DNA from: an uncultured marine group III euryarchaeote
GTDB lineage: Archaea; Thermoplasmatota; Poseidoniia; MGIII; CG-Epi1
NCBI GenBank assembly: GCA_902533295.1
Contig: CACALG010000001.1
Location: 19,048 to 83,047 of the forward strand
DNA length: 64,000 bases
Direction: 5' to 3'
Below, in pieces: positions 4,528 through 60,202 of this stretch (its first letter is position 1; each line of letters opens with the position of its first letter). The notes under the pieces were generated by a model. The model was not told where the DNA came from. It ran no database searches and worked only from the letters and a program-made list of their open reading frames with translations. The translations under genes were made by a program, and so were the position numbers.

Positions 4528-4604
4528 TGGGTCCGTGGTCTAGTTGGTTATGACGTCGCCTTGACATGGCGGAGATCCCCGGTTCGAATCCGGGCGGACC
4601 CACC
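4528..4604 (+). tRNA. tRNA-Val (anticodon GAC) with encoded CCA
   Basis: Cloverleaf by hand: acceptor GGGTCCG/CGGACCC, anticodon stem TCGCC/GGCGA, loop TTGACAT, T-arm CCCGG-TTCGAAT-CCGGG, discriminator A, CCA. Confidence 0.9.
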
Positions 4605-4606
4605 AC

Positions 4607-9239: not shown

Positions 9240-10707
<1,468 letters not shown>

Positions 10708-16248: not shown

Positions 16249-16986
16249 ATGACTGAACAATACCACATGAATTCCCATGAAGGCACATATACTAGGGAAT
16301 TTGAGGCTAAAGTAGAGGCTACATTCCCAGGCATCATCGAACTAGATAAGACTGCATTCTATCCATTGGGAGGGGGCCAACCCTCAGATATTGGAACAAT
16401 AACTTGGAATGAAGGAGATGCAAATGTTACTGATGTGAGGAAAAAAAATCGAATTAGGCACATTGTAGAAGGAGATTTACCAGAAGTTGGAGATTCCATA
16501 AAAGGTAATCTTGACTGGTCACGAAGATATTCACATATGAGAATGCATACTTCTCAACATTTAGTTTCTGCTGTAGTGAATGAAATATATGGTTCAGATA
16601 CCGTAGGAAATCAGATAGGAAATGAGAAGTCTAGAATAGATTTTAAGCCTTTAAAAATAAACCAAACTGAGCTTAATGAAGTAGAGGACAAAGTCAATGA
16701 TTACATATCTAAAGACTTGAAAGTTACTATATCTGAGGAATTACGGTCCAATTTAGAAAATAATCCAGATATCCGTTCAAGTATGTCTAGTGGTCTTTGG
16801 AAAATGTTACCGAAAAGTGTTACAGAATTAAGAGTAATAACCATAGGTGATATCGATGTTTGTCCATGCGCAGGCACTCATGTAAAAAGCTTAAAGGAAA
16901 TAGGTAATGTTTCTTTTATTAAAAGAGATAATAAGGGTTCTGAAAAATTAAGATTAACATATAATCTAGGCGATATCGACTCTTGA
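16249..16986 (+). CDS. alaX: AlaX-type Ala-tRNA editing protein (tRNA synthetase second additional domain)
   Basis: The zinc/editing motifs HTSQHLVS (HxxxH) and CPCAGTHV (CxxxH) sit at the spacing expected for free-standing AlaX. Confidence 0.8.
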   Translation: MTEQYHMNSHEGTYTREFEAKVEATFPGIIELDKTAFYPLGGGQPSDIGTITWNEGDANVTDVRKKNRIRHIVEGDLPEVGDSIKGNLDWSRRYSHMRMHTSQHLVSAVVNEIYGSDTVGNQIGNEKSRIDFKPLKINQTELNEVEDKVNDYISKDLKVTISEELRSNLENNPDIRSSMSSGLWKMLPKSVTELRVITIGDIDVCPCAGTHVKSLKEIGNVSFIKRDNKGSEKLRLTYNLGDIDS

Positions 16987-22128: not shown

Positions 22129-22220
22129 CTTGCTTATAGAGATAGTTATCTGTTAATAAAATAAACCGAAGATTTATACAATACAATAATTTTAAATTAG
22201 TCAATGAATCAAGATAATTA

Positions 22221-23555
22221 ATGGTTCTTGAAAAATTAGGAGATGCACTAAGAGAAACTCTTAGAAAAATAGCCGGTGCCAGCCACATTTCTCCTGAATT
22301 AATTAAAGAATTAGTAAGAGATATACAAAGAGCACTATTACAATCAGATGTTAATGTAAGACTCGCCCTAGATTTGAGTAAAAGAATAGAAACTAGAGCT
22401 TTAGATGAAAAAGCGCCGGCTGGAATGACAGGGCGTGAACATGTTGTTAGAATTGTGCATCAAGAACTAGTATCTGCATTAGGTGAACCAAGATCTCTTA
22501 AATTAGAAAAACAAAGAATTATGTTAGTAGGTCTTTATGGCCAAGGTAAAACTACTACTACAGGAAAACTAGCAAAGTACCTTAAGAAAAAGGGTTTGAG
22601 CCTAGGATTAATTGCAGCTGATGTCCATAGACCTGCAGCATATGACCAATTATCTCAAATTGGCGAACAAATAGATATTCCTGTATTCGGAAGTTCAAAA
22701 AACACTGACGCAGTAAAAGTGGTAAAAGAAGGATTAAAAGAATTTGAAGAACTAGATATTGTGATTGTTGATACTGCAGGTCGTCATGCTTTAGATGATG
22801 ATCTAATATCTGAAATGGAATCAATTTCTAAAGTAGTCAAACCAGATGAAATATTCCTTGTCATGGATGCAACTGTTGGACAGCAGGCTGGACCACAAGC
22901 AGAAGCTTTCCACGAAGCCGTTGGTGTTTCTGGTGTCATATTAACTAAATTAGATGGTTCTGCTAAAGGTGGAGGTGCATTATCTGCAGTTTCAGTAACA
23001 AATGCCCCAATTATATTTGTAGGAACTGGGGAAAGTTTAGAAAGTTTAGAAACATTGGATCCAGATAGATTTATTTCACGCCTTCTTGGAATGGGAGACC
23101 TACAAACTCTTCTTGAAAGAGCTGAAGAAGTTATAGATGCTAGTACAGCTGAAGATACTGCAAAGAAAATGCTCTCAGGTAAATTTACCTTAATTGATAT
23201 GAGAGAACAAATGGAAGCCATGAATAAAATGGGTTCATTAGATAAAATCATGGAAATGATTCCTGGCATGTCTTCAATGATGAACAAAGGCCAAATGGAA
23301 GAGACTGAGGGTAGATTAGAAAAATTTAAAGTTTTGATGAATTCAATGACTCATGAAGAACTAGAAAATCCAAAATTAATAAAACGTTCTAGGATTGAAA
23401 GAATTGCCAAAGGTTCAGGTTCCGACCCCCAAGAAATCAGAGAATTATTGAAACATTATAATAAAAGTAGAAAAATGATGTCCAATCTTGGTGGAAACAG
23501 AAGAATGCAACAAAGAATGATGAAACAATTTGGAAAGGGTGAACTAAAACTATAG
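22221..23555 (+). CDS. srp54: Signal recognition particle protein SRP54
   Basis: GLYGQGKTTTTGKLA, DTAGR and TKLDG motifs, with a Met-rich M domain. Confidence 0.92.
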   Translation: MVLEKLGDALRETLRKIAGASHISPELIKELVRDIQRALLQSDVNVRLALDLSKRIETRALDEKAPAGMTGREHVVRIVHQELVSALGEPRSLKLEKQRIMLVGLYGQGKTTTTGKLAKYLKKKGLSLGLIAADVHRPAAYDQLSQIGEQIDIPVFGSSKNTDAVKVVKEGLKEFEELDIVIVDTAGRHALDDDLISEMESISKVVKPDEIFLVMDATVGQQAGPQAEAFHEAVGVSGVILTKLDGSAKGGGALSAVSVTNAPIIFVGTGESLESLETLDPDRFISRLLGMGDLQTLLERAEEVIDASTAEDTAKKMLSGKFTLIDMREQMEAMNKMGSLDKIMEMIPGMSSMMNKGQMEETEGRLEKFKVLMNSMTHEELENPKLIKRSRIERIAKGSGSDPQEIRELLKHYNKSRKMMSNLGGNRRMQQRMMKQFGKGELKL

Positions 23556-33905: not shown

Positions 33906-33999
33906 TACAAAACTATTGTATTAACCTTTATAAGGTAGCTTCTGTCGAGACAAATACGGGAATGTGGCGAAAGCTGAACCCTAGAAGTGAGGAATCGCG

Positions 34000-34620
34000 A
34001 TGAGTAAATCATTATACAACTACGTAAGAGACCAATGGAAATCTCCATCTGGTGATGTAAAAAAATTACACAAAACAAGGCTAGTGCAGTATCGTGGAGA
34101 AGACGCTACTACTAAAATTGAAAGACCAACCAGAATTGATAGAGCAAGGGCCTTGGGTTATAGGGCAAAACAAGGATATGTTTTAGCACGTACTAGAATA
34201 AGAAGAGGAGGTATGCGAAAGCATGCTATAACTTCTGGCCGTAGAGCAAAGCGTGCGGGTATATCTAAAATAACAATGGGGAAAAATTTGCAAATGATTG
34301 CAGAAGAAAGAACTTCTAAAAAATATCCAAACTTAGAGATATTAAATTCATATTGGGTTGCAGAAGATGGACGTTACAAATGGTATGAAATGATAATGGT
34401 TGATCCAAACCATCCAGTCATAATGGCTGATCCAAAAATAAACTGGATTTGTAATAGAGCTCAAAAAGGAAGAGTTCATAGAGCTTTAACATCTGCAGGG
34501 AAAAAATCTAGAGGATTGATGAATAAAGGTAAGGGTGCTGAAAAATTAAGGCCAAGTCGCCGTAAGCACATGGTAAGAACCAAACAGAGCCGCACACCAC
34601 ACCCTCCAAGAAAAACCTAA
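34000..34620 (+). CDS. rpl15e: Ribosomal protein L15e
   Basis: YRAKQGYVLARTRIRRGG and WYEMIMVDPNHP are characteristic of L15e. Confidence 0.92.
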   Translation: MSKSLYNYVRDQWKSPSGDVKKLHKTRLVQYRGEDATTKIERPTRIDRARALGYRAKQGYVLARTRIRRGGMRKHAITSGRRAKRAGISKITMGKNLQMIAEERTSKKYPNLEILNSYWVAEDGRYKWYEMIMVDPNHPVIMADPKINWICNRAQKGRVHRALTSAGKKSRGLMNKGKGAEKLRPSRRKHMVRTKQSRTPHPPRKT

Positions 34621-34660
34621 GGAAGTTGATAAAATCGCCTACAATCGTAAAAATCCATTC

Positions 34661-35770
34661 ATGGCCACTGTAGTGGATGCACACTGCATATCTGAAGGTT
34701 CATACAAAGAAACAAACCACTATGCAGTATCCATAAGAGGAAGTGGAATCAGGTACAAACCTGGAGACTCTATGGGTTTTTATCCTAGTAATGATGAGGA
34801 CTTAGCAAAACAAACACTAAGAGCTATTGGCGCAAAAAAGAACGTTATTGTTGAAACTAAAGAAACTGGGAAAATAGAACTTTTTGATGCATTACTGAAT
34901 CGGTTCACAATTCATAGAGCTGGAAAGAAATTTTTAAGCGCAGTAGTTTCTAAAATGAAAAAAGGAAAAGAGAAAGACGAATTAACCAAAATACTAGAAG
35001 ATCGTGATAAGACTGAAAAATATTTGTTCACAAGAGACTGTATAGATATTCTAAATGAACATCTGGTTCATTTTGAACCACAGGAATTCATAGATACTTT
35101 ATCGCCTATAACTCCAAGATTGTATTCTATTAGTTCTTCACCTAAATTACATCCTGGTGAAATACATTTAACTATTGCAATAGTAAAATACAATAATTTT
35201 GATAGAGATAGATACGGTTTAGCAACAGGTCACTTAGCAAAAGAAGTAGATGTAAATAAAACAAATATTCCCGTCTATGTACAACCAACAAAAGAATTTA
35301 TTCTTCCAAAGGATAAATCTAAAGATATTATTATGGTTGGGCCTGGAACTGGTATTGCACCATTTAGAGCATTTATTGAACACCGGAAAGCTACTGAAGC
35401 AACAGGAAGAAATTGGTTATTCTTCGGTGAAGTAAATCAAGATTCTACCTTCTTTTACAACGATGAATGGGCTGAATACATGAAAGGTGGAAACTTAGAC
35501 AAACTAACTACTGCATTTTCCAGAGATCAAGAAGATAAAATATACGTGCAACATAGATTACTAAGTAATGCTAAGGAAATATGGGAATGGTTAGACAATG
35601 GTGCTTATTTCTATGTTTGTGGTGACAAACAATACATGGCTAAAGATGTTCATAAAGCCTTAATAGAAATTGCTGAGAAAGAAGGTAAAATGAAAAAGAA
35701 AGATGCTGAGAATTACATTAATCAAACATTAATGAAAGATGAACATAGATATCTCAGAGACATTTACTGA
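34661..35770 (+). CDS. CysJ / cytochrome-P450-reductase-type FAD/NADPH-binding oxidoreductase module without a flavodoxin domain
   Basis: RLYSISSSP, GPGTGIAPFRAF, YVCGD..YMAKDV and a terminal RYLRDIY. Confidence 0.8.
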   Translation: MATVVDAHCISEGSYKETNHYAVSIRGSGIRYKPGDSMGFYPSNDEDLAKQTLRAIGAKKNVIVETKETGKIELFDALLNRFTIHRAGKKFLSAVVSKMKKGKEKDELTKILEDRDKTEKYLFTRDCIDILNEHLVHFEPQEFIDTLSPITPRLYSISSSPKLHPGEIHLTIAIVKYNNFDRDRYGLATGHLAKEVDVNKTNIPVYVQPTKEFILPKDKSKDIIMVGPGTGIAPFRAFIEHRKATEATGRNWLFFGEVNQDSTFFYNDEWAEYMKGGNLDKLTTAFSRDQEDKIYVQHRLLSNAKEIWEWLDNGAYFYVCGDKQYMAKDVHKALIEIAEKEGKMKKKDAENYINQTLMKDEHRYLRDIY

Positions 35771-38437: not shown

Positions 38438-38511
38438 TGTTATTACCGTTATAGTTTTGTTATATAAAAGAATGCCAAAAAAGTTTGGAAAAAAGAAACG
38501 CAGAGTTTATA

Positions 38512-39864
38512 ATGGGCAGTTTTTGCGAACACATGGACCCAGTAAGTGTGCTTGACTACAGATACGGCACAGAGCAAATGAGAACTATATTTCGTGCTAA
38601 TTCATATTTACAAGCATTACTGGAAGTAGAAGCGACACTTGCCGAAGTACAAGAAGAGAAAGATATAATTCCTAAAGGAACCTCTTCCCAAATCCGTAAT
38701 GGAATCAGTGCAGTAAAACGTGAAAGAGTAGAAGAAATAGAATCTCAAATAAATCATGATGTCATGGCTGTTGTCAAAGCTCTCGAAGAACAATCTGGTG
38801 ATGCAGGGAAATGGATTCATTTTGGAGCAACCAGTTATGATATAGTAGATACTGCAAGAGCTTTACAGCATAAAAGTGCTATTACGTTATTGGAAGTTGC
38901 AATTGATAAATTAATAAATTCTTTAGCTCATTTAGCAAAAGAACATAAAAAAACAGTTATGTTAGGCAGAACACATGGCCAATGGGCAACACCAATTACT
39001 TTCGGCCTAAAAATGGCTGTTTTTACATCTGAACTGAAGAGACACAGAGATAGACTTATTGAATTAAAACCTAGAATATTAACAGGGAAATTTCTGGGTG
39101 CTGTAGGTTCTGGAGCTGCAATGGCACCACATACTCTAGAAGTTCAAAGTGCTATTTGCAAAAAATTAAGTCTCAATGAACCATTAGCTACAACACAAAT
39201 ACTCGGTCGAGATCGAATTGCAGAGTTGATAGCTTGGGGTTCTAATCTAGCAGTAAGTTTAGAAAAATTCACTACAGAAGTACGTAACCTACAAAGAAGT
39301 GATATTGGTGAAGTAGCTGAAGCCTTTGATCGTGAAAAACAGGTTGGATCTTCTACTATGGCTCAAAAAAAGAACCCAATTACATCTGAGAATATTGGCG
39401 GATTAGCAAGAGTTGTTAGATCTATGCTCTATACTTCTTATGAGAATAATTTGCAGTGGCATGAAAGGGATTTAGCCAATTCCAGTGCAGAGAGAATAAT
39501 TTTGCCTCAATTCTACATATTATTAGAATATATTTTAGTCAAATCTGACAATGTTTTCTCAAACCTCTATGTTAATAAAAAAAGGATGAAAGAAAATCTA
39601 GACAATGCTGGTGGTTTACCTATGGCAGAGGCTTTTGTTATCGCACTAGGAAAAACAGATTTAGGAAGACAAGAAGCCCATGAACTCGTCAGAACTATCA
39701 CAATGGAAGCTGAGAAGTCAAATATATCATTTTCTCAAGCAATAGAAGAGAATAAAGAAGTTTTAAATTATTTAAATCAGAAAGAAATAAGTTATTGTTT
39801 AGATCCTCAAAATTACACGGGCCACTCTGAAGAAATCATTGACAAAGTTTTGGGTTCATTATAA
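38512..39864 (+). CDS. purB: Adenylosuccinate lyase
   Basis: Fumarate-lyase signature GSSTMAQKKNP and a full-length PurB pattern. The start could be ATG 38512 or ATG 38533; the ORF track begins at TTG 38485. Confidence 0.9.
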   Translation: MGSFCEHMDPVSVLDYRYGTEQMRTIFRANSYLQALLEVEATLAEVQEEKDIIPKGTSSQIRNGISAVKRERVEEIESQINHDVMAVVKALEEQSGDAGKWIHFGATSYDIVDTARALQHKSAITLLEVAIDKLINSLAHLAKEHKKTVMLGRTHGQWATPITFGLKMAVFTSELKRHRDRLIELKPRILTGKFLGAVGSGAAMAPHTLEVQSAICKKLSLNEPLATTQILGRDRIAELIAWGSNLAVSLEKFTTEVRNLQRSDIGEVAEAFDREKQVGSSTMAQKKNPITSENIGGLARVVRSMLYTSYENNLQWHERDLANSSAERIILPQFYILLEYILVKSDNVFSNLYVNKKRMKENLDNAGGLPMAEAFVIALGKTDLGRQEAHELVRTITMEAEKSNISFSQAIEENKEVLNYLNQKEISYCLDPQNYTGHSEEIIDKVLGSL

Positions 39865-47972: not shown

Positions 47973-48706
47973 CCTACAAAACCACCGATAAGGGCATATT
48001 AATTACAGACGAAAGATTAGCTGCACAAATATACAATAAAGGAAAAACAGGAACTACCCAGGAAAAAGGTAACCTGTTATTAAGGCCTGAAGAAGCATTA
48101 TATTGCGATTATCGAGGTGATTTTGAGCTTTCAGATAACGAGAGAAAGAAATTCATGTCAAATAATTATACAGTTTACAGAGATCTAAAAGAACGTGGTT
48201 TAATAGTAAAAATTGATGATTTTGGCCTAAGAGTTTATGACCGAAAAACTGAAACTAAAGGACAAGCATCTGCAATTGTTTTGCCTAAAAATTTCGACGA
48301 AAAAATAGATTTTAGCAATATTTTTAATGAACTGGAAAAGGGACTTGAGAGAAGAGTCCAAATTGGAATAATAGATTCTGACAATGATGTAGTATATTAT
48401 GTGATTAAAGGCATCAAATGGGATGAAACTAAACTAAAAGAAGGTCAAAAAAGTACAATTACAGACAAGGAAGTTCAAGAACTACTCGAGAAAGGATACC
48501 AAATAAATTCTGGATTAAAATTTGGAACACATTACAGAGTCTACAACTATGAGTCAAATCATGCCCCTTGGCTAATACACGTCATAAAAGAAGGAATTAA
48601 TTGGTTAGATATTGCAAGAATGGTACGTGTAGGTCATGGTGTCAATAAGACAATAGTTTTAGCATACAAACAGAAATGGCTTAGTATTGAATGGATTAAA
48701 CCTTGA
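47969..48706 (+). CDS. endA: tRNA-splicing endonuclease EndA (two-unit, alpha2-like); start codon unresolved
   Basis: Catalytic unit SGLKFGTHYRVY...HAPWLIHV...RVGHGVNKT, preceded by a degenerate first unit (FGLRVYDRK...IIDSDNDVVYYVIKG). The conserved N-terminal domain (GILITDERLAAQIYNKG...LLLRPEEALYCDYRG) is encoded upstream of the first ATG (48155), in a frame open from 47960. Confidence 0.8.
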   Translation: MTYKTTDKGILITDERLAAQIYNKGKTGTTQEKGNLLLRPEEALYCDYRGDFELSDNERKKFMSNNYTVYRDLKERGLIVKIDDFGLRVYDRKTETKGQASAIVLPKNFDEKIDFSNIFNELEKGLERRVQIGIIDSDNDVVYYVIKGIKWDETKLKEGQKSTITDKEVQELLEKGYQINSGLKFGTHYRVYNYESNHAPWLIHVIKEGINWLDIARMVRVGHGVNKTIVLAYKQKWLSIEWIKP

Positions 48707-49416
48707 TAGTTGGACTCTACACCAAAGATTTTGCTTTACTTAACAATATCACAAATAAGATAAAAGATCAAAAAATTAAACTTCGCCACCTAGATAATCT
48801 TTCAAATTTAGGAAAGGATTTGCAAATAATTATTTCTAAAAGAAGAATTAAGAATTGTAAAATACCTCAAATACAACCTGAAAATTTGGACGTTCTAGAA
48901 TTGAAATTAAGATGTAAACTATATACCTGTTCTGGTTTAGTAATAGGAATAGATCCTGGTGGCATGATTGGCCTATCTGCAATAGGTACTGGTAGAATAT
49001 TGTTCATGAATACTTATGATAATCCTAATGATTTAGCCATAATTGTTAAATCTATATATTTAGAAATAGGGCTAAAAGCGATTAAGATTGGATTAGGGTC
49101 TCCACCTGAGAGAACAAGAATATTAGACGTACTCAAAGAATATTCAAGTATCATTCAATTAGTCAATGAGCAAAATAGTGGAAGTGGGAGTCATACTGAA
49201 GCTGCAACAATAATTGCTTTGCGCCAAGGTAAATATAATTTAGATGAAAAATACAGACCTAAGGATGGAGAAATATCATGGATTCAGAAGGAATCAAGAA
49301 GATTATCAAAAGGATTAGTTACAATAGACAAAGAACTTGCTCATGAAATACTAATTGGGGAAAAGACTATGGATGAAGCCATAAAAATTTACACAAAAAA
49401 AATGAAACTTCGGTAA
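48703..49416 (+). CDS. Hypothetical protein, possibly an RNase H-fold (RuvC/YqgF-like) nuclease
   Basis: GLVIGIDPGGMIGLSAIG resembles the first strand and acidic residue of RNase H-like nucleases. The TTG start overlaps the endA stop (TTGA). The call is weak. Confidence 0.35.
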   Translation: MIVGLYTKDFALLNNITNKIKDQKIKLRHLDNLSNLGKDLQIIISKRRIKNCKIPQIQPENLDVLELKLRCKLYTCSGLVIGIDPGGMIGLSAIGTGRILFMNTYDNPNDLAIIVKSIYLEIGLKAIKIGLGSPPERTRILDVLKEYSSIIQLVNEQNSGSGSHTEAATIIALRQGKYNLDEKYRPKDGEISWIQKESRRLSKGLVTIDKELAHEILIGEKTMDEAIKIYTKKMKLR

Positions 49417-49472: not shown

Positions 49473-50205
49473 ATGGCATTACTAGAAGTTAAAGAGCTAA
49501 AAAGAGGCTTTGGATCCAAGACCTTTGGCACTCGAATTGAGGTTCTTAAGGGCGTTAATTTAGAAATAAAAAAGGGTGAACTAGTTGCGTTAATGGGACC
49601 GTCTGGATGTGGAAAATCTACCTTATTGAATATAATTGGAGGATTGCTAAAAGGAGATTCCGGAAAAATAAGTATTACTTCTCAAGAAAATAATTATAAT
49701 TATGGAACTAAGAATCCTAATCGTGTTGTAGATGTAAGAAGAAATGGTGTAGGATGGATATTTCAAGATTTTCACTTAATCGAACATTTAACTGCTATAG
49801 ACAACGTTGCATTATCACTTGAAATTTCAGGATTAACGGAGAGAGAAGCTGAGGAAAAAGCTAGATTAGCACTTACTAAAGTTGGTCTCAGGGATAGGAT
49901 AGACTTTGGTGTAGAGCAACTTTCAGGAGGTCAACGTCAACGAGTTGCTGTTGCAAGAGCTATTGCTGGTTCTAGACCGCTACTATTAGCAGACGAGCCA
50001 ACGGGAAATCTAGATATTGAGAGCGGAAATGATGTCATAAAATTGTTTAAGATGCTTACAAAATCTGAAAAAACCAATCTCAGTACTAATGGTTACACAT
50101 GATCCTAATCTAGCCAGTCAAGCCGATCGTATGTTATTGTTAAAAGACGGACTTGTGGCTGCGAGTGATATAAAATCTGCATGGGGAATAGGAGGAAAGA
50201 AATGA
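49473..50205 (+). pseudogene. MacB/LolD-type ABC transporter ATPase interrupted by a +1 frameshift in an A6 run
   Basis: Walker A GPSGCGKST, signature LSGGQRQRVAVARA and Walker B LLLADEPTGNLD lie in frame 0, which stops at 50100-50102. The H-loop and C-terminus (VLMVTHDPNLASQADRMLLLKDGLV) continue in the +1 frame to TGA at 50203-50205. The shift lies at the A6 run 50068-50073. Confidence 0.7.
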
Positions 50206-51734
50206 AGAAAAGAATAATAAAATGGAAAAATAAATTCCGAGATCTTCCTGATAATTTAAGAATAGCTGGCCTTAGTTCATGGCGTGACAAGGAAAGAGGA
50301 TTAGCTGTATTCGCAGGAGTTTTCCTCGCAAGTTTAGTAATTACTTTAGTATTAGTATACGGAGTTGGGCTTTCACAAGCTTTCTTAGAAGAATCATTAG
50401 AACAAACAGTTTTTGATTCAAAAATAGAATTTAAAAATGCTCCAGCTCAGGGTTCTACTGGATGGACAAACAACACTACTATTTTACAAAATATGTGTGA
50501 TGAAGTTACACTAAAGGAAGAATTTAGTGATTGCACAGTAATATTGGGTAAAAGTGGGATACATAGTGAGTTGAGCTTTTCTAATGATGCTGCATTTTAC
50601 GCATCTCCACTCTTTTTGAAGGAAATCGAATCTTCTGATAATGACAGAGACTGGGATCAAGAGGATTTATGGGATTATGAATACACGACAGGACCTCCTG
50701 TTGTAAACATAAGAGCTATTTCATTTTTGGGCCCTGAAGCTTTTGATGGTGAAATCTCAGAACGCTTATCTAAAAAAACATAATTTATGAAATGGGCGAA
50801 TGGAAAACTCATGAAGAGGTCCATGCTGAAAGAGGCATATACATTCCATTAGATATTGCATCTACTACTGGTGCGGAAGTAGGAGATAAAATAGAACATC
50901 TAACATTTACTTACACTTCTGAAAGAAGCCTTCCAGGAGGGATGTCTGAAGAAGATTGTGCTGGTGAGATAATTGAAGGTGAAGAATTCAGGCTTATGTA
51001 TTGCCAAATTCCCCTAACTCTTGATAATGTCACAATTCTAGGAATATATGAACCATGGCCACAAGGTAATCCAGTTCTTGCTGCTAATCCTATATACACA
51101 ACATGGACTATACTTGATGAAAAGCAGCAAACTACTCTGATTGATAATGACCATGTATACCTTGGTGTAACTGTAGATCGCACTCTATTACCAACATCAT
51201 CTATCTCAGCTGCAGAAGATTGGTTAGAAATTGTTGCAAATGATATGCAAAAAACAAACTTACGATGATGGAAATGTAAAGATATTCTATGTAGATATAA
51301 TAAGTAGCAGTATTTTGTGGCTTGAATTTTTCCTTGGATTCGTTCAAGTATTCGATTATATTTTAATGATACCTGTGGTTATTCTTTCCCTATACTTACT
51401 AATTTATGGACTAGAACTTTCATTAGAACAAAGAAGAAGAGAAATAAGTATTCATAGAGCCATTGGTGCAACAGCAGAAAAACTTAAGGGAATGGTTCTC
51501 TTTGAACTGTTTATAATCTCTACAGTTGCTTGGTTAGGTGGATATTTGCTTGCCCTTATTGCAGTTCCTTTTGTCCTATCTATTGTTGGTTTTATGGAAT
51601 TTGAGGCATTGGAAATCGATGTTAATCCAAGTCTGAGCTTTGGCGCTACATTCTTCACCATTCTTACCACCCTGGGATTAGCTTTAATTTTCGGTAATTC
51701 TCGCACGAAAAGCTTCCTAGAGATGGAAAATTGA
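50202..51734 (+). pseudogene. N-terminal half of an FtsX/MacB-type permease (TM1, extracytoplasmic domain, first FtsX bundle) split into three ORFs by frameshifts at poly-A runs
   Basis: ATG 50202 follows ggaggaaag and overlaps the ATPase stop (ATGA). The ORFs 50202-50783, 50792-51268 and 51231-51734 are consecutive pieces of one extracytoplasmic domain plus the RRREISIHRAIGAT FtsX motif. The junctions fall at A7 (50772-50778) and A6 (51249-51254). The middle ORF has no TM helix or signal peptide. Confidence 0.65.
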
Positions 51735-51780
51735 TGAGGGGGTCAGAAAGACAAAGGAGACAGGTAAACCAAGAGTTTGG

Positions 51781-53778
51781 TTGCATTGGACTATGTTTGG
51801 CATAGGAGCCATAGGTGCAATAGATACTTGGCAAGAATTGAATACAACCGGTGAAGGAATAATAACCAACTGGTTTGTAGGTGGCTTAATTAATATTTTT
51901 GGACCTTTCTTATTATGGATAGGTGGGGCTTTGTTGCTTTCAAGATTAGGTGCAGCCGGACCTTCTATAATGCTTAAATTCTTCAGAAAAACCCCATTGC
52001 TTTCTGATGTAAAGAGAGGTCTTGAATCGACTGGAACAAGTGAATCTACAGGTAGACTATCAACAATTATGCTATTGACATTATCAATAGTAACTCTCGC
52101 AGCCGTACAAGGATATACAGGTTCTCTTGTCGATGAAAGAACAGCGGATTTAGATATTGGTAGCGACATCAAAGTTTATGCTGTTGAACCAATGACTTCA
52201 ATTGAAGTAGAACAAGCAATCACTAATATCAGCTCTAAAGACCTTACTGTAAATGCAGTAAATGTACCGATTATTCCCTTGATATCTGAGGATGGGACGG
52301 ACGTTAATGCATATGTACTAATGAATGAAAGTACCGAGATACTCAAATGGTTTCCTCAAGCCGTTCCTGGAAAAGATATTTCTGAAGCAATGATTGCATA
52401 CAAAGATGGAGGATTCACAGCAGGCGAAGATATAGCATTTACATTGGATTTATGGGGTTCTGGCCGTTACGGTGATTCAGAAGACATATTACTAGATAAA
52501 AGCAATAAGAACTCAGAAAATTTGAATTTAACATGGGAAGAAACTATTGTTACCTTTACAGGTGAGGAAAATGAAGAACTAGATCCAATGATGGCGATAG
52601 TGTTGTATACTGGGTTCATGGAAAAGAATTGGTCAAATATTGACCTATCTAACCAGGATATAAGCAGCCGGAATTTTACACAAACTGACTTTTCGAATAC
52701 AAATTTATCTGGTGCCAATTTAGCTAATTCAGATTTATCAGAATCGATATTCTTCAACGTTGATCTAAGGGGTGCTAATCTAACTGGTGCAAATCTAAAC
52801 AATACTGTATTTGTGATACAACCACAAAACATTGTCGGTGCAAACTTTACAGGTGCAAATCTGAGAGGGGCCTTTGAATATACTGGATTTGTTAATTTGT
52901 CAAACGAGGAAATAAGTGGTGCTATTTGCCCTGATGGAACTATACAAACTAATGATAATAATTGTTCCACTGGATTTAGTACAATACCTCCCCCCTTACT
53001 GGCACCTTTCTTTATTCCTGCAACAGTTGAATTTGAAGTGATTCCACATGAAACAACTATACGATACATTGGAGTTCATGAATTCATTCCTGGTGTTGCT
53101 ACAAATGACATGAATAATTATTTAGTAATAAATGAGCTAGCATATAGAGAATTACGAGGAAATCAATTCGTTGATAGTGAAACTTCAACTACTTGGATTG
53201 TAGATATAGATGGGCTCAATAATGATGAATTACAAGTATTGGCCCTGCTAATAGCTGCAGATTCTCGTTTTGAAAGTGCCGATGATTGGGAAACATCACA
53301 TGAAAATGTTGAGAGAAATGGAGGAATTATATTCGGAACACAGGGTCTTTTCACACTACAATATCTTGTTGCAAGTGTTGCTGCAATAGCCTCATCATTT
53401 GTTTTCTTATCATTAGTTTTAAATCAAAAGAAGAAAGAATTGGCTATTTTACAAGCAATAGGAGCTAGTCCAAATCAGATTATCAGACTCGTTTTATTCG
53501 AGATTCTATCTATAGTATTTGTTTCTATGATTTTAGGAGTTATACTCGGTATTGGTTTGGCTTTATCCTTTAACGGACTGTTTGATATCTTTGGATTCTT
53601 ATTCCAGTTGTTTTCTGGAACTGGAGAATCATCAGTAATTACAAGAGTACTACAGTGGCCTTGGTGGGTTATAATCAAGGTCACATTAGGTGTACTATCT
53701 GTGGTTGTCTTGGCTTTAATTATGACCACCAGAAGGGCATTACGTGCCGATTTAGCCGTTGTTTTAAAGGGAGAATAA
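51781..53778 (+). CDS. C-terminal half of the double-FtsX permease: three TM helices, a second extracytoplasmic domain containing pentapeptide repeats, and a second FtsX bundle
   Basis: KKELAILQAIGASPNQIIRLVLFE FtsX motif with C-terminal TM helices, and pentapeptide repeats at 52627-52875. This frame is open from 51721 and overlaps the end of the preceding ORF, so it may be one gene with 50202-51734 (possible +1 shift at 51727-51730). Confidence 0.7.
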   Translation: MHWTMFGIGAIGAIDTWQELNTTGEGIITNWFVGGLINIFGPFLLWIGGALLLSRLGAAGPSIMLKFFRKTPLLSDVKRGLESTGTSESTGRLSTIMLLTLSIVTLAAVQGYTGSLVDERTADLDIGSDIKVYAVEPMTSIEVEQAITNISSKDLTVNAVNVPIIPLISEDGTDVNAYVLMNESTEILKWFPQAVPGKDISEAMIAYKDGGFTAGEDIAFTLDLWGSGRYGDSEDILLDKSNKNSENLNLTWEETIVTFTGEENEELDPMMAIVLYTGFMEKNWSNIDLSNQDISSRNFTQTDFSNTNLSGANLANSDLSESIFFNVDLRGANLTGANLNNTVFVIQPQNIVGANFTGANLRGAFEYTGFVNLSNEEISGAICPDGTIQTNDNNCSTGFSTIPPPLLAPFFIPATVEFEVIPHETTIRYIGVHEFIPGVATNDMNNYLVINELAYRELRGNQFVDSETSTTWIVDIDGLNNDELQVLALLIAADSRFESADDWETSHENVERNGGIIFGTQGLFTLQYLVASVAAIASSFVFLSLVLNQKKKELAILQAIGASPNQIIRLVLFEILSIVFVSMILGVILGIGLALSFNGLFDIFGFLFQLFSGTGESSVITRVLQWPWWVIIKVTLGVLSVVVLALIMTTRRALRADLAVVLKGE

Positions 53779-53780
53779 AT

Positions 53781-54872
53781 ATGAGTGAAGAACTATTTGA
53801 ACATACAACGGGACAAGGAAAAGAAAATGAAGAATCAAAGCAGCAAATGGAAGCTGCTCAATTCTCAGAGAATTTATATGACAACAAAATAGACAAAAAT
53901 GCTATCTTACAAGCTATAGCATTATATCATGTTTATCAATCTACTGCTGAAGATGGAAATGTTGTTGCTTTGAGAGGATTAAATGTAACTGTTAAGAAAG
54001 GAGAAGCTGTAGCCATTGTTGGTCCTTCTGGTTCTGGTAAATCAACCTTATTGAAATGTCTTGGAGTTTTAATGAAGCCCTCAGCAGGAGGGGTTATCCT
54101 AAACGGAACGCCAACTACACGTAAGACTGGACTTGAACTAGTAAAAATGAGACAAGAAACAGTTTCATTTATTTTCCAAGAAGGGAATCTATTGCCTGAT
54201 CTAAATGCCCTCGATAACGTAGCTCAACCACTACGCCACAGAGATGTAAGCCCATATGAAGCAAAAGAAAAAGCACGTGAATTATTAATTGAATTAGGCT
54301 TAGAAGAAAGAATATATGGATTTCCTGAAACACTTTCAGGTGGTGAACAGCAAAGGGTCGCAATTGCACGGGCGTTAGTAACAAATCCAAAACTGATTCT
54401 AGCCGATGAACCTACGGGGGCACTAGATCCTATAACCAGTAGAGAAGTACTAGAATTATTTGGAAAATTACACAAGGAAAGAGGTGTAGCATTCTTAATT
54501 GTAACACATAGTGCAGAAGTAGCAGCTTTTTGTGATCGTAGCTTAGAATTACGTGATGGCAGATTTGTCGCCGAACATGGAACAAACTTAGAAATAGAAG
54601 ATTTAGAAGAATCTCGTGAACTAATAATTGATGATTTAGGAACATTATCATTTCCTCCTGAAGTATTGATGAGAATGGGTGGTTCTGGACGATTTGAAGT
54701 TGAGGAAGCTGCTGATGGAAAAATTACCTTGGTTGCTGCTGAGAGAAAAGAATCTATGATTAAAGGAAAGCAAAAACTGGCTGAGAAATGTCCTGCTTGT
54801 GAGTACAAATACAAGGACAATAGCCAAATGTGTCCTGAATGTGGTTCAAGCCGACCAATGATTAAATCATAA
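53781..54872 (+). CDS. ABC transporter ATPase with a C-terminal extension ending in a zinc ribbon
   Basis: GPSGSGKST, LSGGEQQRVAIARAL, LILADEPTGALD and VTHS, followed by a ~95-aa tail with CPAC-x12-CPEC (54789-54845). ATG 53781 lies 2 nt after the permease stop; the ORF track starts at 53655. Confidence 0.85.
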   Translation: MSEELFEHTTGQGKENEESKQQMEAAQFSENLYDNKIDKNAILQAIALYHVYQSTAEDGNVVALRGLNVTVKKGEAVAIVGPSGSGKSTLLKCLGVLMKPSAGGVILNGTPTTRKTGLELVKMRQETVSFIFQEGNLLPDLNALDNVAQPLRHRDVSPYEAKEKARELLIELGLEERIYGFPETLSGGEQQRVAIARALVTNPKLILADEPTGALDPITSREVLELFGKLHKERGVAFLIVTHSAEVAAFCDRSLELRDGRFVAEHGTNLEIEDLEESRELIIDDLGTLSFPPEVLMRMGGSGRFEVEEAADGKITLVAAERKESMIKGKQKLAEKCPACEYKYKDNSQMCPECGSSRPMIKS

Positions 54873-55425: not shown

Positions 55426-56624
55426 TAGCTACTCAAAGTTTCTTCAATAGCATCTGTGAATTTTCTAATATCTGATTCATTATTGTAAAGATACGCACTA
55501 GCTCTTGCAGTACCTTCTATTCCTCGAGAATTAAACCAAGAATGAACACAATGCATACCACTTCTGATTGCAATGTTATATTTTTCATCTAAATGCATTG
55601 CTACTTCTGTTGGATCCCAACCTTCTATATTGAAAGAAAATATACCTCCTCGGTGAGAAACGTCTTCAGGACCTACTATAGATATTCCATCTAAATCCTT
55701 TAATTTATTTGACATTATAGTATTTAATTTGTTCTCATGTTCCCTAATATTGTCTCTTCCTACATTCATAACATAATCTGCTGCCACGCCTGAACCTATA
55801 GCCCCAGCATAATCCTGTAATCCTGCCTCAAAACATGAAGGAGGTGGTAACAACTTATAATCATCATAGGAAGTATTGACGACTGTGGAACCTCCAACAT
55901 ATGTTGGAATCAATTTCTCTAATTCTTCATATTTACCATACAAAGCACCCATACCACTAGGTCCACAAAATTTATGTGCACTGACTGCCGCAAAATCTAC
56001 ATCTAAATCAACTACATTAACTTCTTTGTGTGGTGCTGATTGTGCTGCATCCATCATAACTTTCACTCCCTTATCATGACATATTTCTATAATTTCTTTA
56101 GCAGGATTTGAGTGCCCATCCAAATTAGATGTATGGACAAAACTTACTAATTTTGTATCGGAAGTTATCCTATCTTTTAGTGCTTCTAAATTGAAATAAT
56201 AATTGTCTTTAGCCTCTAAAACTTCATATTTAATACCCTTATATTTTGCCAAATGATGCCATGGTACCACGTTAGCATTATGCTCTTTATCAGATGTTAG
56301 AACTTTATCTCCTTTTTTGAGATTTAAACCATTTGCCACAATATTCATACCTTCTGTAGCATTTTTTGTGAAAACTATTTCGGTTTGTTTTTCAGCCCCC
56401 ATAAAACGGCGAATTTGGTCTCTTGCAATTTCAAAATTTTCAGTAACCTGCCAACTTAACTTATGTACTGAACGACCTCCACATGCAGGATAATTTGTAT
56501 AATAATCCGTTAAAGCATCTATAACTGCCTGAGGTCTGAGAGTCATACAGGCACTATCTAGATAGATCGGATTATCGTCAGAATTTAACAATGGAAAATC
56601 CTTTCTAAATTTTGAAATGTCCAT
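55425..56624 (-). CDS. Cysteine desulfurase (class V aminotransferase, SufS/CsdA-like)
   Basis: PLP-lysine motif SAHKFCGPSGMGALY, active-site Cys in RSGMHCV, full-length pattern. Confidence 0.88.
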   Translation of the reverse strand: MDISKFRKDFPLLNSDDNPIYLDSACMTLRPQAVIDALTDYYTNYPACGGRSVHKLSWQVTENFEIARDQIRRFMGAEKQTEIVFTKNATEGMNIVANGLNLKKGDKVLTSDKEHNANVVPWHHLAKYKGIKYEVLEAKDNYYFNLEALKDRITSDTKLVSFVHTSNLDGHSNPAKEIIEICHDKGVKVMMDAAQSAPHKEVNVVDLDVDFAAVSAHKFCGPSGMGALYGKYEELEKLIPTYVGGSTVVNTSYDDYKLLPPPSCFEAGLQDYAGAIGSGVAADYVMNVGRDNIREHENKLNTIMSNKLKDLDGISIVGPEDVSHRGGIFSFNIEGWDPTEVAMHLDEKYNIAIRSGMHCVHSWFNSRGIEGTARASAYLYNNESDIRKFTDAIEETLSS

Positions 56625-56708
56625 AGTTGTCTAAACACATTATAATAATGGGATTTAAAGCCATATGACCAGAAGAAAATTTCTTAAAGGGGACGCAATG
56701 AAACAAAT

Positions 56709-57587
56709 ATGAGCTGTGTAGATGACTTATCCAAAATTGGCATGAACGATTTGAACTATACTTGTGCAACAGAAATAGCAAGTATGGGGCCTGTTGCAGC
56801 TTTACTTACTATACTCATTGGAATCCCTCTTGTAAGGCTGGTTTTGAGGTACCTAAAGAATATATTTGAGAAGTATGATTACATCGATGAAGGAATAGAA
56901 AATTTCCTTTTTAGAGCTACCAGCGTAGCTCTTTGGGCTGTTATTTTCTTGACAGCCGCAAATGAACTAGGAATAAATGTTACAGGAATTGTAGCAGCTC
57001 TTGGTATTGTTGGTTTAGCAATGGCTTTTGCAGCTCAAGATACTATAGAGAATATTATTGCAGGTATATTCCTAATGGTAGATAGACCATTCCGTGAAGG
57101 TGATCGAATATTATTACCGAAGAAAATTGGTAGTTTGTATTCAAGCTGGGGTGATGTAACTGAAGTTGGCCTTAGAACAACAAGAGTGCGCTCCACTGAT
57201 GGAGTTTTGCTTACAATACCAAACAAAAATTTGACAAAAGACACCATTGCTAATTTCAACCATAAAGATGACCGAAATCTCCGTGTAAGGATTAGATTAG
57301 GACTAGTGCCAACATGGGAAAATGTATCCAAAGGTGAAGAAATTGTAGAAAATATTGCTAAAAGTCATGAGGACATTTGCCAAGATAAACCAAAACCACC
57401 ACAGATAGTTTTGAGAGATTTTGGAGATCAAGAAGTAATCATGGAAATTAGATACTATGTCCCTAATGCACCTCTAATGAGAAGTACAAAATCATATTTT
57501 GTTAAAGAAATTCTAAAACAATTTGAAGAACAAGATGTTAGATTGGCATACCCAACTAGACTAATTATGAAGGAAGATATTGAATAA
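56709..57587 (+). CDS. Small-conductance mechanosensitive channel (MscS family)
   Basis: The pore helix and beta-domain pattern AAQDTIENIIAGIFLMVDRPFREGDRI ... GDVTEVGLRTTRVRSTDGVLLTIPN. Confidence 0.85.
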   Translation: MSCVDDLSKIGMNDLNYTCATEIASMGPVAALLTILIGIPLVRLVLRYLKNIFEKYDYIDEGIENFLFRATSVALWAVIFLTAANELGINVTGIVAALGIVGLAMAFAAQDTIENIIAGIFLMVDRPFREGDRILLPKKIGSLYSSWGDVTEVGLRTTRVRSTDGVLLTIPNKNLTKDTIANFNHKDDRNLRVRIRLGLVPTWENVSKGEEIVENIAKSHEDICQDKPKPPQIVLRDFGDQEVIMEIRYYVPNAPLMRSTKSYFVKEILKQFEEQDVRLAYPTRLIMKEDIE

Positions 57588-58631
57588 TTAAGGATTCAAA
57601 CCCTTTTCAAGTTCTTCTATTTCCTTACGCAGAGAATCTAAATCCTTATTGTCTTGCGTAGTTGTGGTAGGTGCTTCCGTTGTAGCTAACTGATGCTTAT
57701 ATGGATTGAACCAATTGACAAAATGATTTGCTGCCACTTTCAAAACAGTACTAACTTTGGCCATACCGCCATTGGTTTTAGATATATTGATATCACATGA
57801 CAGCACACCACAGTCAGCATTTGCATTATTAATTTCTGAATATGGGATAGTAACACCTGCACCACCACCGGCAAAAATTAGCCTATCCTGTAAAGCAGCC
57901 ATTGCATTTACAGGAATACCATCAATCTGTGTGTTAAGTTGTGCCTGGACAAGTGCATATACTGTATCCCCGGATTGCATCATACCTATAAGTGGAAAAA
58001 TCTGGGAATCATTATTAGTTACATAAAAACCATCTGGCAACTGTTTGAGCATTTCTCTAAAAAAGGCAAAATCGGCATTGTAAGGTACTCCTGAGATACC
58101 CTGAACCTGATTAGAAACTGGAGGTGTAACTGGAGGTGTAACTGGAGGTGCAGCTGGAGGTGTAGCTGGAGGTGTGCTAATATTAGCATCTTGATTTGTA
58201 GCTAACTGATGCTTATATGGATTGAACCAATTGACAAAATGATTTGCTGCCACTTTCAAAACAGTACTAACTTTGGCCATACCGCCATTAGTTTTAGATA
58301 TATTGATATCACAGGACATTACGCCACAGTCAGCATGTGCATTATTAATTTCTGAATAAGGGATAGTAACACCTGCACCACCACCGGCAAAAATTAGCCT
58401 GTCTTGTAAAGCAGCCATTGTATTTACAGGAATACCATCAATCTGTGTGTTAAGTTGTGCTGGCACTAGTGCATACACTGTGTCTCCAGGCTGCATCATA
58501 CTCATAAGTGGAAAAATCTGAGAATCATTAGTCGTTACATGAAAACCATCTGGCAACTGATTTAGCATTTGTCTAAAAAGAGCCAAATCAGCATTGTAAG
58601 GCACTCCTATTATATTACTCATAAATATCAA
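57588..58631 (-). CDS. Hypothetical protein with two tandem ~137-aa PH-like modules, a PPxxPP linker and a C-terminal coiled-coil tag
   Basis: The two halves differ at 13 of ~137 positions in a manual alignment. The linker is PPATPPAAPPVTPPVTPPV. The protein ends with LRKEIEELEKGLNP. The PH-like call rests on the pattern LQDRLIFAGGG..VTIPYSEINN and is inference. Confidence 0.5.
   Translation of the reverse strand: MIFMSNIIGVPYNADLALFRQMLNQLPDGFHVTTNDSQIFPLMSMMQPGDTVYALVPAQLNTQIDGIPVNTMAALQDRLIFAGGGAGVTIPYSEINNAHADCGVMSCDINISKTNGGMAKVSTVLKVAANHFVNWFNPYKHQLATNQDANISTPPATPPAAPPVTPPVTPPVSNQVQGISGVPYNADFAFFREMLKQLPDGFYVTNNDSQIFPLIGMMQSGDTVYALVQAQLNTQIDGIPVNAMAALQDRLIFAGGGAGVTIPYSEINNANADCGVLSCDINISKTNGGMAKVSTVLKVAANHFVNWFNPYKHQLATTEAPTTTTQDNKDLDSLRKEIEELEKGLNP
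57682..58616 (-). repeat. Intragenic direct repeat, two ~420-bp copies with a 516-bp period
   Basis: The copies lie at about 57682-58100 and 58198-58616. The first ~95 nt of each copy (gtagctaactgatgcttatatgg...ccataccgccatt) are identical. Confidence 0.85.
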
Positions 58632-58657
58632 AAGGTTAGCATATTATTTATTATTTA

Positions 58658-59113
58658 TTATTCATCTAGACTGGCTTCAAGTTCTTCGATTTCTTTCTGC
58701 AAACGCAACTTTTCGGCTGCTTTCACTTCTTCATCTTTTTTCATTAAGTATTCCTTTCTCTTTTGCAAAAGTTCTTCTCGTTCAGCTTGTTCTACTTTTG
58801 CCCTTTCCCGTTCTTGAGCTTCAGCGATAATTCTTGTTTCCTGAAACTGCCTTGCCATTTCCGCATGTGCCTCTAAATTCTCCTTATCCTGTATATTTTT
58901 AGCCCAAGCTACAAAAACCAACATTATTATGAAACTGATACAACAAATAACACTATCTTCCCCAAATTCTTCATCTTGCTTTTCACACTCTGGTGTCCAA
59001 TCAACGTCACAAGAATCATCAGGAGACTCTGAACCAAAAAAGAAAACACATGCGATGAGAAAAAATGTTATAGCAAGAAAATTCAACAGATTCTTCAAAA
59101 TTCCAGAAGCCAA
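58658..59113 (-). CDS. Hypothetical membrane-anchored coiled-coil protein
   Basis: Two hydrophobic segments are followed by a charged helical tail that ends with LQKEIEELEASLDE, the same terminal motif as the neighbouring gene. Confidence 0.45.
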   Translation of the reverse strand: MASGILKNLLNFLAITFFLIACVFFFGSESPDDSCDVDWTPECEKQDEEFGEDSVICCISFIIMLVFVAWAKNIQDKENLEAHAEMARQFQETRIIAEAQERERAKVEQAEREELLQKRKEYLMKKDEEVKAAEKLRLQKEIEELEASLDE

Positions 59114-59161
59114 ATAATCACCCTATAACAACAAGAAAAACACTATTTAAAAAAATTTACC

Positions 59162-60100
59162 TTATTTAGAAAGCTTTTCCATCCTTTCTTCATATATCTT
59201 ATCATTAATCAATCCTTCAGCATGCAATTCTTTAAGTTGATCAATCTTAACTTGCAAAGAACCACTTGAAGCTTCTTTCTCAATATTTGATTTACTTACA
59301 ACACTATCTTTGATAATTGTGTCTCTGTCATCTACATAAGTTGTTGTTGTATCTCTATCATCTATATAATTTCCTTGAACAATTGTTGTAGGTGGTCCTG
59401 CACTCACTTGCATCTTACTCTTATTAACACGACGTATATCCTCTACCCTATCTAATTCTCTATACAAATCAAGTGCATGTTCATAATCTAATTGTCTCTC
59501 ATACTTCCTAGCTAATTCTAACTTCTTCGCTACCTTTCTATCTGCCTCCTCTCGCCTCTTTTTATCCTTTAATTCATTCTTAAGCTCAGCCTTCTTAGCT
59601 CTGAGTTTTTCCAATTCGGGATCAACAGATTTACTTGATGGTTCAACTTTTTCTCTAGGGTTGTTAAACTTTTGACTCGTATTTGGGATTTCATTTTTAA
59701 ATTCCTGATTAGTAGTGTCGTGAACATTTACAGGACACAGACCAAACAGAACTTGGGCATCTGTTTGCGATACAAAAGTAGAGGCTGCCATAAACTGATA
59801 TTTTTCTTGAGCATATCCATTGTCATAACTGAAATTAAAGAATTGCTTACCATTTCCAGTAATCCATTTTGTTCGCATTTTGATTAATTCAAAGGCCATT
59901 TGATTAGTGGCATCTCCACAGACCAAAAGTCTCGTATTAGTCAAAAAAATATTTGCCTTACTGTATATTGTATTTTTACCCAAATATGAATCTGTTGTAG
60001 TAATATTGTAAAATTTTTGAATTGTTACATTGGCTCCATTTCCTCCAGAAGACCAAACAATATGCTCATTAGCCTCAAGCAAAGGATTCGTATTAGGCAT
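59162..60100 (-). CDS. Hypothetical protein: N-terminal PH/GRAM-like module, central coiled coil, C-terminal SHOCT-like motif
   Basis: LLEANEHIVWSS ... IFLTNTRLLVCG fits the bacterial PH-like pattern. The basic/acidic coiled coil is ELEKLRAKKAELKNELKDKKRREEADRK. The C-terminus KIDQLKELHAEGLINDKIYEERMEKL resembles SHOCT. Confidence 0.5.
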   Translation of the reverse strand: MPNTNPLLEANEHIVWSSGGNGANVTIQKFYNITTTDSYLGKNTIYSKANIFLTNTRLLVCGDATNQMAFELIKMRTKWITGNGKQFFNFSYDNGYAQEKYQFMAASTFVSQTDAQVLFGLCPVNVHDTTNQEFKNEIPNTSQKFNNPREKVEPSSKSVDPELEKLRAKKAELKNELKDKKRREEADRKVAKKLELARKYERQLDYEHALDLYRELDRVEDIRRVNKSKMQVSAGPPTTIVQGNYIDDRDTTTTYVDDRDTIIKDSVVSKSNIEKEASSGSLQVKIDQLKELHAEGLINDKIYEERMEKLSK

Positions 60101-60202
60101 ATCTAATTACTATAAGTGGAGTTTTAGAAACTTTCTCCAAAAGATTCATTCTATACACATAAATATAATAAATCCCTCACAGATAGAGCTATGAGGAAAA
60201 AA

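Follow-up and report, generated by a model that had tools for sequence, protein, structure and literature searches.

Extra adenines in four A-runs break two genes of a Marine Group III ABC-transporter operon, probably through a local consensus error

Introduction

Has an ABC-transporter operon of a Marine Group III archaeon lost its reading frames, or has its sequence been misread? In the window, by which we mean the whole 64-kb stretch of DNA that was analysed, five extra A's in four A-runs lie within 1.66 kb (positions 50068–51730), and both the gene of the first ATPase and that of the permease are broken by them. The answer matters for annotation and quality control, since an annotation of the sequence as it stands would turn the two genes into six fragments or pseudogenes and count a conserved Marine Group III transporter among the losses. 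Among the consensus errors of long-read and flow-based platforms, homopolymer indels dominate, and they give rise to false pseudogenes (PMC12007338); the inactivation of genes in AT-rich genomes through slippage at poly(A)/poly(T) is described in the Buchnera and Blochmannia literature (PMC3017870, PMC3164680), and prokaryotes are known to use homopolymeric tracts as switches (PMC2831843).

Our preferred answer, at a probability of about 0.6, is that the extra A's are absent from the DNA of the organism and are homopolymer over-calls of a local consensus error, a technical origin to which the pattern of the breaks points indirectly. Neither outcome would be out of the ordinary: one is a flaw of the assembly, the other a homopolymer frameshift pseudogene of the textbook kind.

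Organization of the operon and gene identity

Three-frame translation and the list of open reading frames place on the forward strand an ABC transporter with the gene order ATPase-1, permease, ATPase-2; the features and the four sites are collected in Table 1.

Table 1. Genes, gene fragments and extended A-runs of the transporter operon (positions in the window)
Feature	Position	Strand	Description
ATPase-1, whole span	49473–50205	+	stop at 50203–50205
ATPase-1, N-terminal 200 codons	49473–50072	+	frame 0; Walker A GPSGCGKS, signature LSGGQ, Walker B LLLADEPT
Site 1	50068–50073	+	A6, compared with a 5-nt tract in close relatives (AGAAA, AGAAG, TGAAA, AAAAA); +1; ATPase-1 passes from frame 0 to +1
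ATPase-1, C-terminal 43 codons and stop	50074–50205	+	+1 frame; H-loop VTHD
Permease, whole span	50202–53778	+	duplicated-FtsX permease, ~1190 aa (1190/1191 repaired); ATG overlaps the ATPase-1 stop (ATGA)
Permease fragment 1	50202–50771	+	TM1 (aa 34–52) and first half of extracytoplasmic domain 1
Site 2	50772–50778	+	A7, compared with A5 (or GAAAA/AAAAAT) in relatives; +2; permease passes from frame 0 to −1
Permease fragment 2	50779–51248	+	−1 frame; second half of extracytoplasmic domain 1; no membrane segment
Site 3	51249–51254	+	A6, compared with A5 (or AAAAG/AGAAG) in relatives; +1; permease frame restored (+1)
Permease fragment 3	51255–51726	+	first FtsX membrane bundle, hydrophobic segments at aa ~365–495
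Site 4	51727–51730	+	A4, compared with A3 in 34/34 relatives; +1; permease passes to +1, then open to 53778
Permease fragment 4 (665-aa downstream ORF)	51731–53778	+	linker membrane segments, extracytoplasmic domain 2, second FtsX bundle
ATPase-2	53781–54872	+	intact, LolD/MacB-like; weak C-terminal double-zinc-ribbon match; directly 3′ of the permease in all relatives

As sequenced, the Walker A, ABC signature, Walker B and H-loop motifs of ATPase-1 do not lie in a single polypeptide, and the removal of one A brings them together in a protein of 243 aa that matches Pfam ABC_tran with E = 6.5e-35. The repaired permease matches Pfam FtsX (E = 1.6e-23) in two stretches, each an instance of the PF02687 C-terminal 4-helix domain, and Pentapeptide (E = 5e-12). 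According to a hydropathy scan, TM1 is followed by a large, putatively extracytoplasmic domain 1 (aa ~53–365), FtsX bundle 1, two linker segments, a second domain predicted to be extracytoplasmic (aa ~635–1053), which contains the pentapeptide repeats (aa ~805–881), and FtsX bundle 2 (aa ~1054–1173).

The top NCBIfam matches of ATPase-1 are ATPases of the DevA/MacB/FtsE/LolD type, each under its equivalog cut-off, and the scores in the operon stay under the curated cut-offs for every named equivalog (DevA, 201 vs 295.8 bits; ADOP, 58.7 vs 622.3 bits). By these cut-offs the genes do not belong to the MacB, LolCDE, FtsEX, DevA or ADOP equivalogs. The likeness to the MacB/LolCDE/FtsEX-type (type VII) transporters and to ADOP (TIGR03434) lies in the two PF02687 bundles, each of which follows a large extracytoplasmic domain, and in the LolD/MacB/FtsE-like cognate ATPases; unlike these systems, the window scores far under the equivalog/subfamily cut-offs, bears pentapeptide repeats in extracytoplasmic domain 2 of the permease, and has its genes broken in frame. 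The operon encodes an ordinary, conserved ABC transporter of the MacB/LolCDE/FtsEX type in a Marine Group III (Poseidoniia) archaeon; as a MacB/FtsX-type system this transporter is conserved among Marine Group II/III archaea, where it is uncharacterised.

Archaeal markers elsewhere in the window include a tRNA-intron endonuclease, a GINS-like protein, ribosomal protein L15e and a complete archaeal 16S rRNA (9240–10707).

Comparison with orthologous loci

Syntenic loci, recognized by the succession of an endonuclease, a 237-aa gene, the ATPase, the permease and the second ATPase, were taken from a JGI metagenome, NCBI genomes and many other assemblies; scans for orthologous loci yielded 10 from the genome collection and 23 from metagenomes. 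Each of the 34 orthologous loci, which come from Marine Group III/Poseidoniia and share 64–92% nucleotide identity with the window, has both genes in frame, and the window alone is longer at all four sites, by +1, +2, +1 and +1. The nearest relatives of the window are Marine Group III/Poseidoniia MAGs and SAGs.

The frame switches that the original prediction had placed in the ATPase (A6, with VTHD in the +1 frame) and in the permease (A7 and A6) were recovered by three-frame translation and in the list of open reading frames. The fourth, given there as possible, is real, and the 665-aa open reading frame is the C-terminal part of the permease, because the repaired 1190/1191-aa product aligns over 99–100% of the length of intact proteins of ~1200 aa (best match, 93% identity). 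The relatives encode one intact ATPase of 244–246 aa and one permease of ~1200 aa, which bears out the view that the fragments cannot be separate working proteins. Two details of the prediction were revised. The fragments had been assigned to one extracytoplasmic domain, which is correct for the breaks at aa ~191 and ~349 but not for that at aa ~508, which falls past the first FtsX bundle. Intact tracts of A5, A8 and A5 had been expected, and the orthologs give a 5-nt tract, A5, A5 and A3, so that site 2 is A5 and not A8.

Compared with the closest relatives, L003 and L010, the four sites are the only indels of a length other than 3n in ~14 kb of well-aligned coding sequence; against L003 (~92% nucleotide identity) there is no other such coding indel over 49.66–57.57 kb and 60.2–64.0 kb. 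The breaks are unique to the window sequence, confined to A-runs, all insertions and tightly clustered, in coding sequence that is otherwise perfectly constrained.

In the scans of the genome collection and the metagenomes no locus exceeded 96% amino acid or ~92% nucleotide identity, so that the population of the window has no further assembly there that spans the operon. A search with the middle fragment found no identical frameshifted product, and its matches were short contigs and fragmented genes from noisy long-read assemblies of other lineages.

Confinement of the breaks to one operon

The window contains 105 A/T runs of at least 6 nt, of which 100 lie inside open frames of at least 140 codons, and 1057 A/T runs of at least 4 nt, 63 of them in the operon. 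If hits were distributed uniformly, the other three would fall in the same operon with a probability of ~2e-4, and the clustering of the breaks is far beyond chance. Within the broken stretch there are 18 A-runs and 14 T-runs of at least 4 nt; taken alone, neither the restriction to the A strand nor the extent of 1.66 kb out of the 4.3 kb of the operon is significant (P ~0.1–0.16 for each by our own estimate).

We then scanned the whole window for frameshifts by editing each homopolymer by −2, −1 or +1 and checking for the fusion of long open reading frames. By this homopolymer-editing scan there are no further frame breaks in the 64 kb, and the fusions obtained are only ordinary gene junctions with complete, separate Pfam domains on each side. 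One candidate break, at 21989–22288, proved spurious, the 1720-aa protein having a signal peptide of its own. The A7 run at 39365–39371 in GSSTMAQKKNP, used earlier as an in-frame control, does lie inside the open reading frame 38485–39864. Over approximately the first 730 positions of the archaeal SSU model, the 16S rRNA gives a clean alignment.

A different picture is given by the Pilon-polished long-read contigs of related archaea (L037–L039), which in the same syntenic region carry 35–63 frame-breaking indels per 16 kb. Unlike in the window, these indels concern all four bases, run in both directions and occur in every gene. Nor do errors follow the homopolymer content of the assembly, there being no other break in 64 kb. 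A uniform homopolymer artefact, which the original prediction had already judged not to be the simplest explanation, is thus excluded: the rest of the window is clean, and any error process must for that reason be strictly local.

Selection on the operon and age of the breaks

Codon changes were placed by parsimony on the branches of a trio formed by the window, L003 and L010. In the repaired operon the ratio of nonsynonymous to synonymous changes (N:S) is 17:113 on the window branch, compared with 26:90 on the branch of the intact sister and 68:356 for the flanking genes on the window branch, and the test for relaxed selection proposed in the original prediction therefore reveals no relaxation. 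The ratio for ATPase-2 on the window branch, 10:32, is similar to that of the sister lineage, 9:24. The repaired frames contain no internal stop in 1435 codons, and only one of the 18 window-unique residues of the permease falls at a column conserved at 95% or more (56 homologs). Window-specific and sister-specific substitutions number 57 and 58 in the broken 1.66 kb and 143 and 143 over the operon. A noisy single-read stretch that would also bear substitution errors was considered and rejected, since these numbers are equal.

To relate the extra A's to time, we used the ratio of intergenic indels to substitutions in the window lineage, which is ~0.1 (2:26, 4:39 and 11:85). A mutator lineage is rejected, this ratio not being raised in comparison with L003 (2:26). 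At a ratio of ~0.1, four or five neutral indels would bring with them ~40 substitutions, of which some three quarters (~30) would be nonsynonymous, and no excess was found. An extra 20–30 nonsynonymous changes are excluded (P < 2e-5), and the excess over the sister branch is at most ~2 (one-sided 95% bound). The probability that at least four neutral indels would arise before the sixth neutral substitution is ~0.002–0.014. All four events are insertions, and one of them is +2; the P value for this is 0.06 even at a 50:50 chance of insertion and deletion.

These values decide the case of an old pseudo-operon decaying under relaxed selection. Several frameshifts in two adjacent genes are what such decay would produce; however, N:S on the window branch does not exceed that of the intact relatives and the flanking genes, there is neither a stop nor an excess of substitutions, and the unique residues avoid conserved columns. 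Old decay, which the original prediction had named first among its options, is rejected because N:S is constrained, stops are absent and substitutions are not in excess, and we hold it to be almost without probability. The breaks, if biological, are extremely recent.

Even without reads, frameshifts can thus be dated by combining indels polarised on orthologs, lineage-specific N:S and a calibration of indels against substitutions in intergenic sequence. This route splits an old pseudogene from an error or a very recent event.

Improbable switching or recoding at the A-runs

Phase variation, or heterogeneity of the population, in which contingency A-tracts would turn the transporter on and off, agrees with the position of the breaks at homopolymers, and in phase-variable contingency loci it is likewise the length of a homopolymer that sets the reading frame (PMC2831843). 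The tracts of the window are, however, short (4–7 nt here, ancestrally 3–5), and four of them must revert together; those of the relatives are often interrupted by G (AGAAG, GAAAA) and of constant length across the 34 orthologs. There is no long tract near the 5′ end, and one of the breaks costs ATPase-1 merely its C-terminal 43 residues. Unlike contingency loci, the window has several short tracts, with neither conservation nor length polymorphism among relatives. The phase-variation-like switching suggested earlier is accordingly not borne out, and we regard it as very improbable.

Programmed recoding, that is, ribosomal frameshifting or transcriptional slippage at the A-runs that would restore the full-length proteins, appears more improbable still. 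Frameshifting by −1 is possible on A-rich heptamers, RNA polymerases add A's when they transcribe A-runs (PMC5574713, PMC5009743), and one added A would mend site 2 (A7). On the other hand, the two-frame architecture occurs in no relative, all of which encode single-frame genes, and the corrections required differ in sign (−1; −2 or +1; −1; −1), three of them on one permease mRNA. The slippage rate climbs exponentially with run length and is low for such short runs, and a frame-restoring transcription error was not seen even in Buchnera (PMC5574713).

With old decay, phase variation and programmed recoding rejected, consensus error or very young inactivation is left.

Probable consensus error and possible very young inactivation

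Assembly errors in homopolymer length lead to false frameshifts and pseudogenes, against which tools such as Kastor (PMC12007338) and Homopolish (PMC8011154) are directed. The operon resembles such errors in that its indels lie only in homopolymers, the open reading frames are otherwise intact and conserved, and the tract lengths of the relatives mend them exactly, which is the pattern by which a consensus error is recognized. The local density of ~2.4 indels per kb is also like that of the noisy contigs L037–L039. A consensus error further suits the purity of the breaks, which are A-run insertions only with one of +2, their close grouping, and the complete lack of evolutionary change alongside them. 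On the preferred reading, homopolymer over-calls would have been left in the consensus over a short stretch with poor read support; a low-coverage bridge, an unpolished patch or a homopolymer-error-prone read chemistry are candidate causes.

Several points count against a consensus error. A strictly local failure is a special assumption, and, unlike the usual homopolymer assembly errors, those of the window are confined to 1.66 kb of 64 and are insertions of A only. The spectrum of pure A expansion is unlike that of the Pilon-polished long-read (nanopore) contigs of relatives, and changes such as A3 to A4 or A5 to A7 would be very unusual if the source were a well-covered Illumina-only assembly. 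Replication slippage, moreover, yields the same homopolymer-only signature.

This last point leads to a possible, though less likely, alternative, a very young genuine inactivation, in which replication slippage expanded the A-runs and killed the operon in the sampled cell or population. In AT-rich genomes, the death of a gene classically begins with slippage at A/T runs. The course of events, as tentative as the inactivation itself, would be a first hit followed by the neutral build-up of slippage insertions, with too little time for substitutions. Such an inactivation takes the frameshifts exactly as the sequence reads, and it suits a window of 35% GC with its abundance of A/T runs. The confinement to one operon is predicted by selection, frameshifts elsewhere being purged, and the high quality that the remaining window appears to have also speaks for it.

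Against this stands the count of nonsynonymous changes, which is lower than in the sister although ~30 would be expected with four or five neutral indels. There are no stops, deletions or non-homopolymer lesions, and every event is an insertion, whereas prokaryotic pseudogenes are generally deletion-biased. Finally, the intact operon in 34 of 34 relatives implies strong retention.

The comparison with endosymbionts is likewise divided. The AT-rich genome, the single-base changes in A-runs and the several hits per locus are shared with slippage in Buchnera and Blochmannia; unlike these, the archaeon is planktonic and free-living, long open frames cover ~95% of the window, and relaxed selection is not detectable. 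The long poly(A) tracts discussed for slippage rescue in endosymbionts much exceed those of the window.

If the tracts are real, the operon would be a well-resolved, very young pseudogene in a streamlined planktonic archaeon, of modest interest and without a new mechanism. That the five A's are real and near-simultaneous, as a burst of A-tract expansion in one transcribed operon of a free-living planktonic archaeon, we consider improbable. Such a burst might have come, for example, from a transient local slippage-prone synthesis event instead of slow neutral accumulation, and, if true, it would mean that a conserved transporter was caught at the moment of loss.

Occurrence of the population in other data sets

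Matches of exact products in independent assemblies were sought for the fragment 50792–51268, EndA and the 344-aa dehydrogenase, none of which gave one, and for L15e, which was matched on a short Tara contig. Contig k127_1046609 of Tara run ERR594337 is 99.65% identical to positions 33913–34770 of the window, and, judging from this identity, at least one public Illumina data set appears to contain the same population.

Domain Architecture of the Permease and the Second ATPase

The repaired permease carries a pentapeptide-repeat segment (aa ~805–881) in its second extracytoplasmic domain, and the same segment is found in the ~1200-aa permease homologs of the Marine Group III type. Homologs of ~1040–1066 aa, some of which are source-named Poseidoniaceae or Thalassarchaeaceae, lack the segment: they align over 66% of the query and have no pentapeptide match in Pfam. 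The segment looks like a lineage-specific domain insertion. At the N-terminus of the permease (50210–50223), the window and L003, its closest relative, are 27 nt (nine codons) shorter, in frame, than the archaeal loci L001 and L010.

The second ABC ATPase has an N-terminal extension of ~40 residues and, at its C-terminus, a weak match to the double zinc ribbon (PF12773, E = 0.002). Given the duplicated permease, the two different ATPases of the operon may form a heterodimer.

Positions of features in the window
Feature	Position	Strand	Remarks
tRNA-Val(GAC)	4529–4605
16S rRNA	9240–10707	−	archaeal, complete; 1504 bits, model positions 1–1478
Giant ORF, 1735 aa	10990–16197	−	BNR and CARDB domains
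245-aa ORF	16249–16986	+	between the two giant ORFs
Giant ORF, 1720 aa	16966–22128	−	beta-helix, NosD and cohesin domains; signal-peptide-like start
237-aa ORF	48703–49416	+
Pentapeptide-repeat segment	~52620–52850
Second ABC ATPase	53781–54872	+
MscS gene	56600–57499
Insert	57588–60190		~2.6 kb
Insert ORF	57588–58631	−
Insert ORF	58658–59113	−
Insert ORF	59162–60100	−

Frameshifts in Other Assemblies

Three contigs of related archaea from public long-read metagenomes, all with names ending in "_pilon" (L037, ENA ERZ28548082, 717 kb; L038, ERZ28548065, 108 kb; L039, ERZ28548060, 141 kb), contain 35–63 indels of non-3n length per 16 kb of the syntenic region, affecting all bases and running in both directions. 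Each gene in this region is frameshifted, and the protein sets from these contigs are heavily fragmented. The permease on a short contig of the L003 lineage with a low coverage of 3.7 (L040; ENA ERZ12295393, NODE_52355) has a 1-nt deletion of its own (TTAG-ACAAAG), equivalent to ~51427 in the window, and is in frame at site 3, with A5.

Divergent Regions near the Operon

The three ORFs of the insert are flanked by the genes for the MscS channel and the Fe/Mn superoxide dismutase; no family could be assigned to them, the sole match, bPH_3, being sub-threshold. The insert is missing in L003, L004, and L006–L010. In the adjacent MscS gene, 91 substitutions are window-specific versus 8 that are L003-specific, which suggests a small flexible island with an edge that has undergone recombination.

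The 237-aa ORF, which has no Pfam family, is syntenically conserved, being flanked by the tRNA-intron endonuclease and the ATPase. It has evolved fast along the window branch (N:S = 18:34), and lineage-specific substitutions at positions 48800–49399 number 62 versus 18.

rRNA Genes and Giant ORFs

The 64-kb window contains no 23S rRNA gene, and linkage between the rRNA genes therefore seems to be lacking. The two giant ORFs are convergent on the 245-aa ORF. The GC content falls to 0.29–0.30 between positions 18 and 22 kb of the window versus ~0.35 elsewhere.
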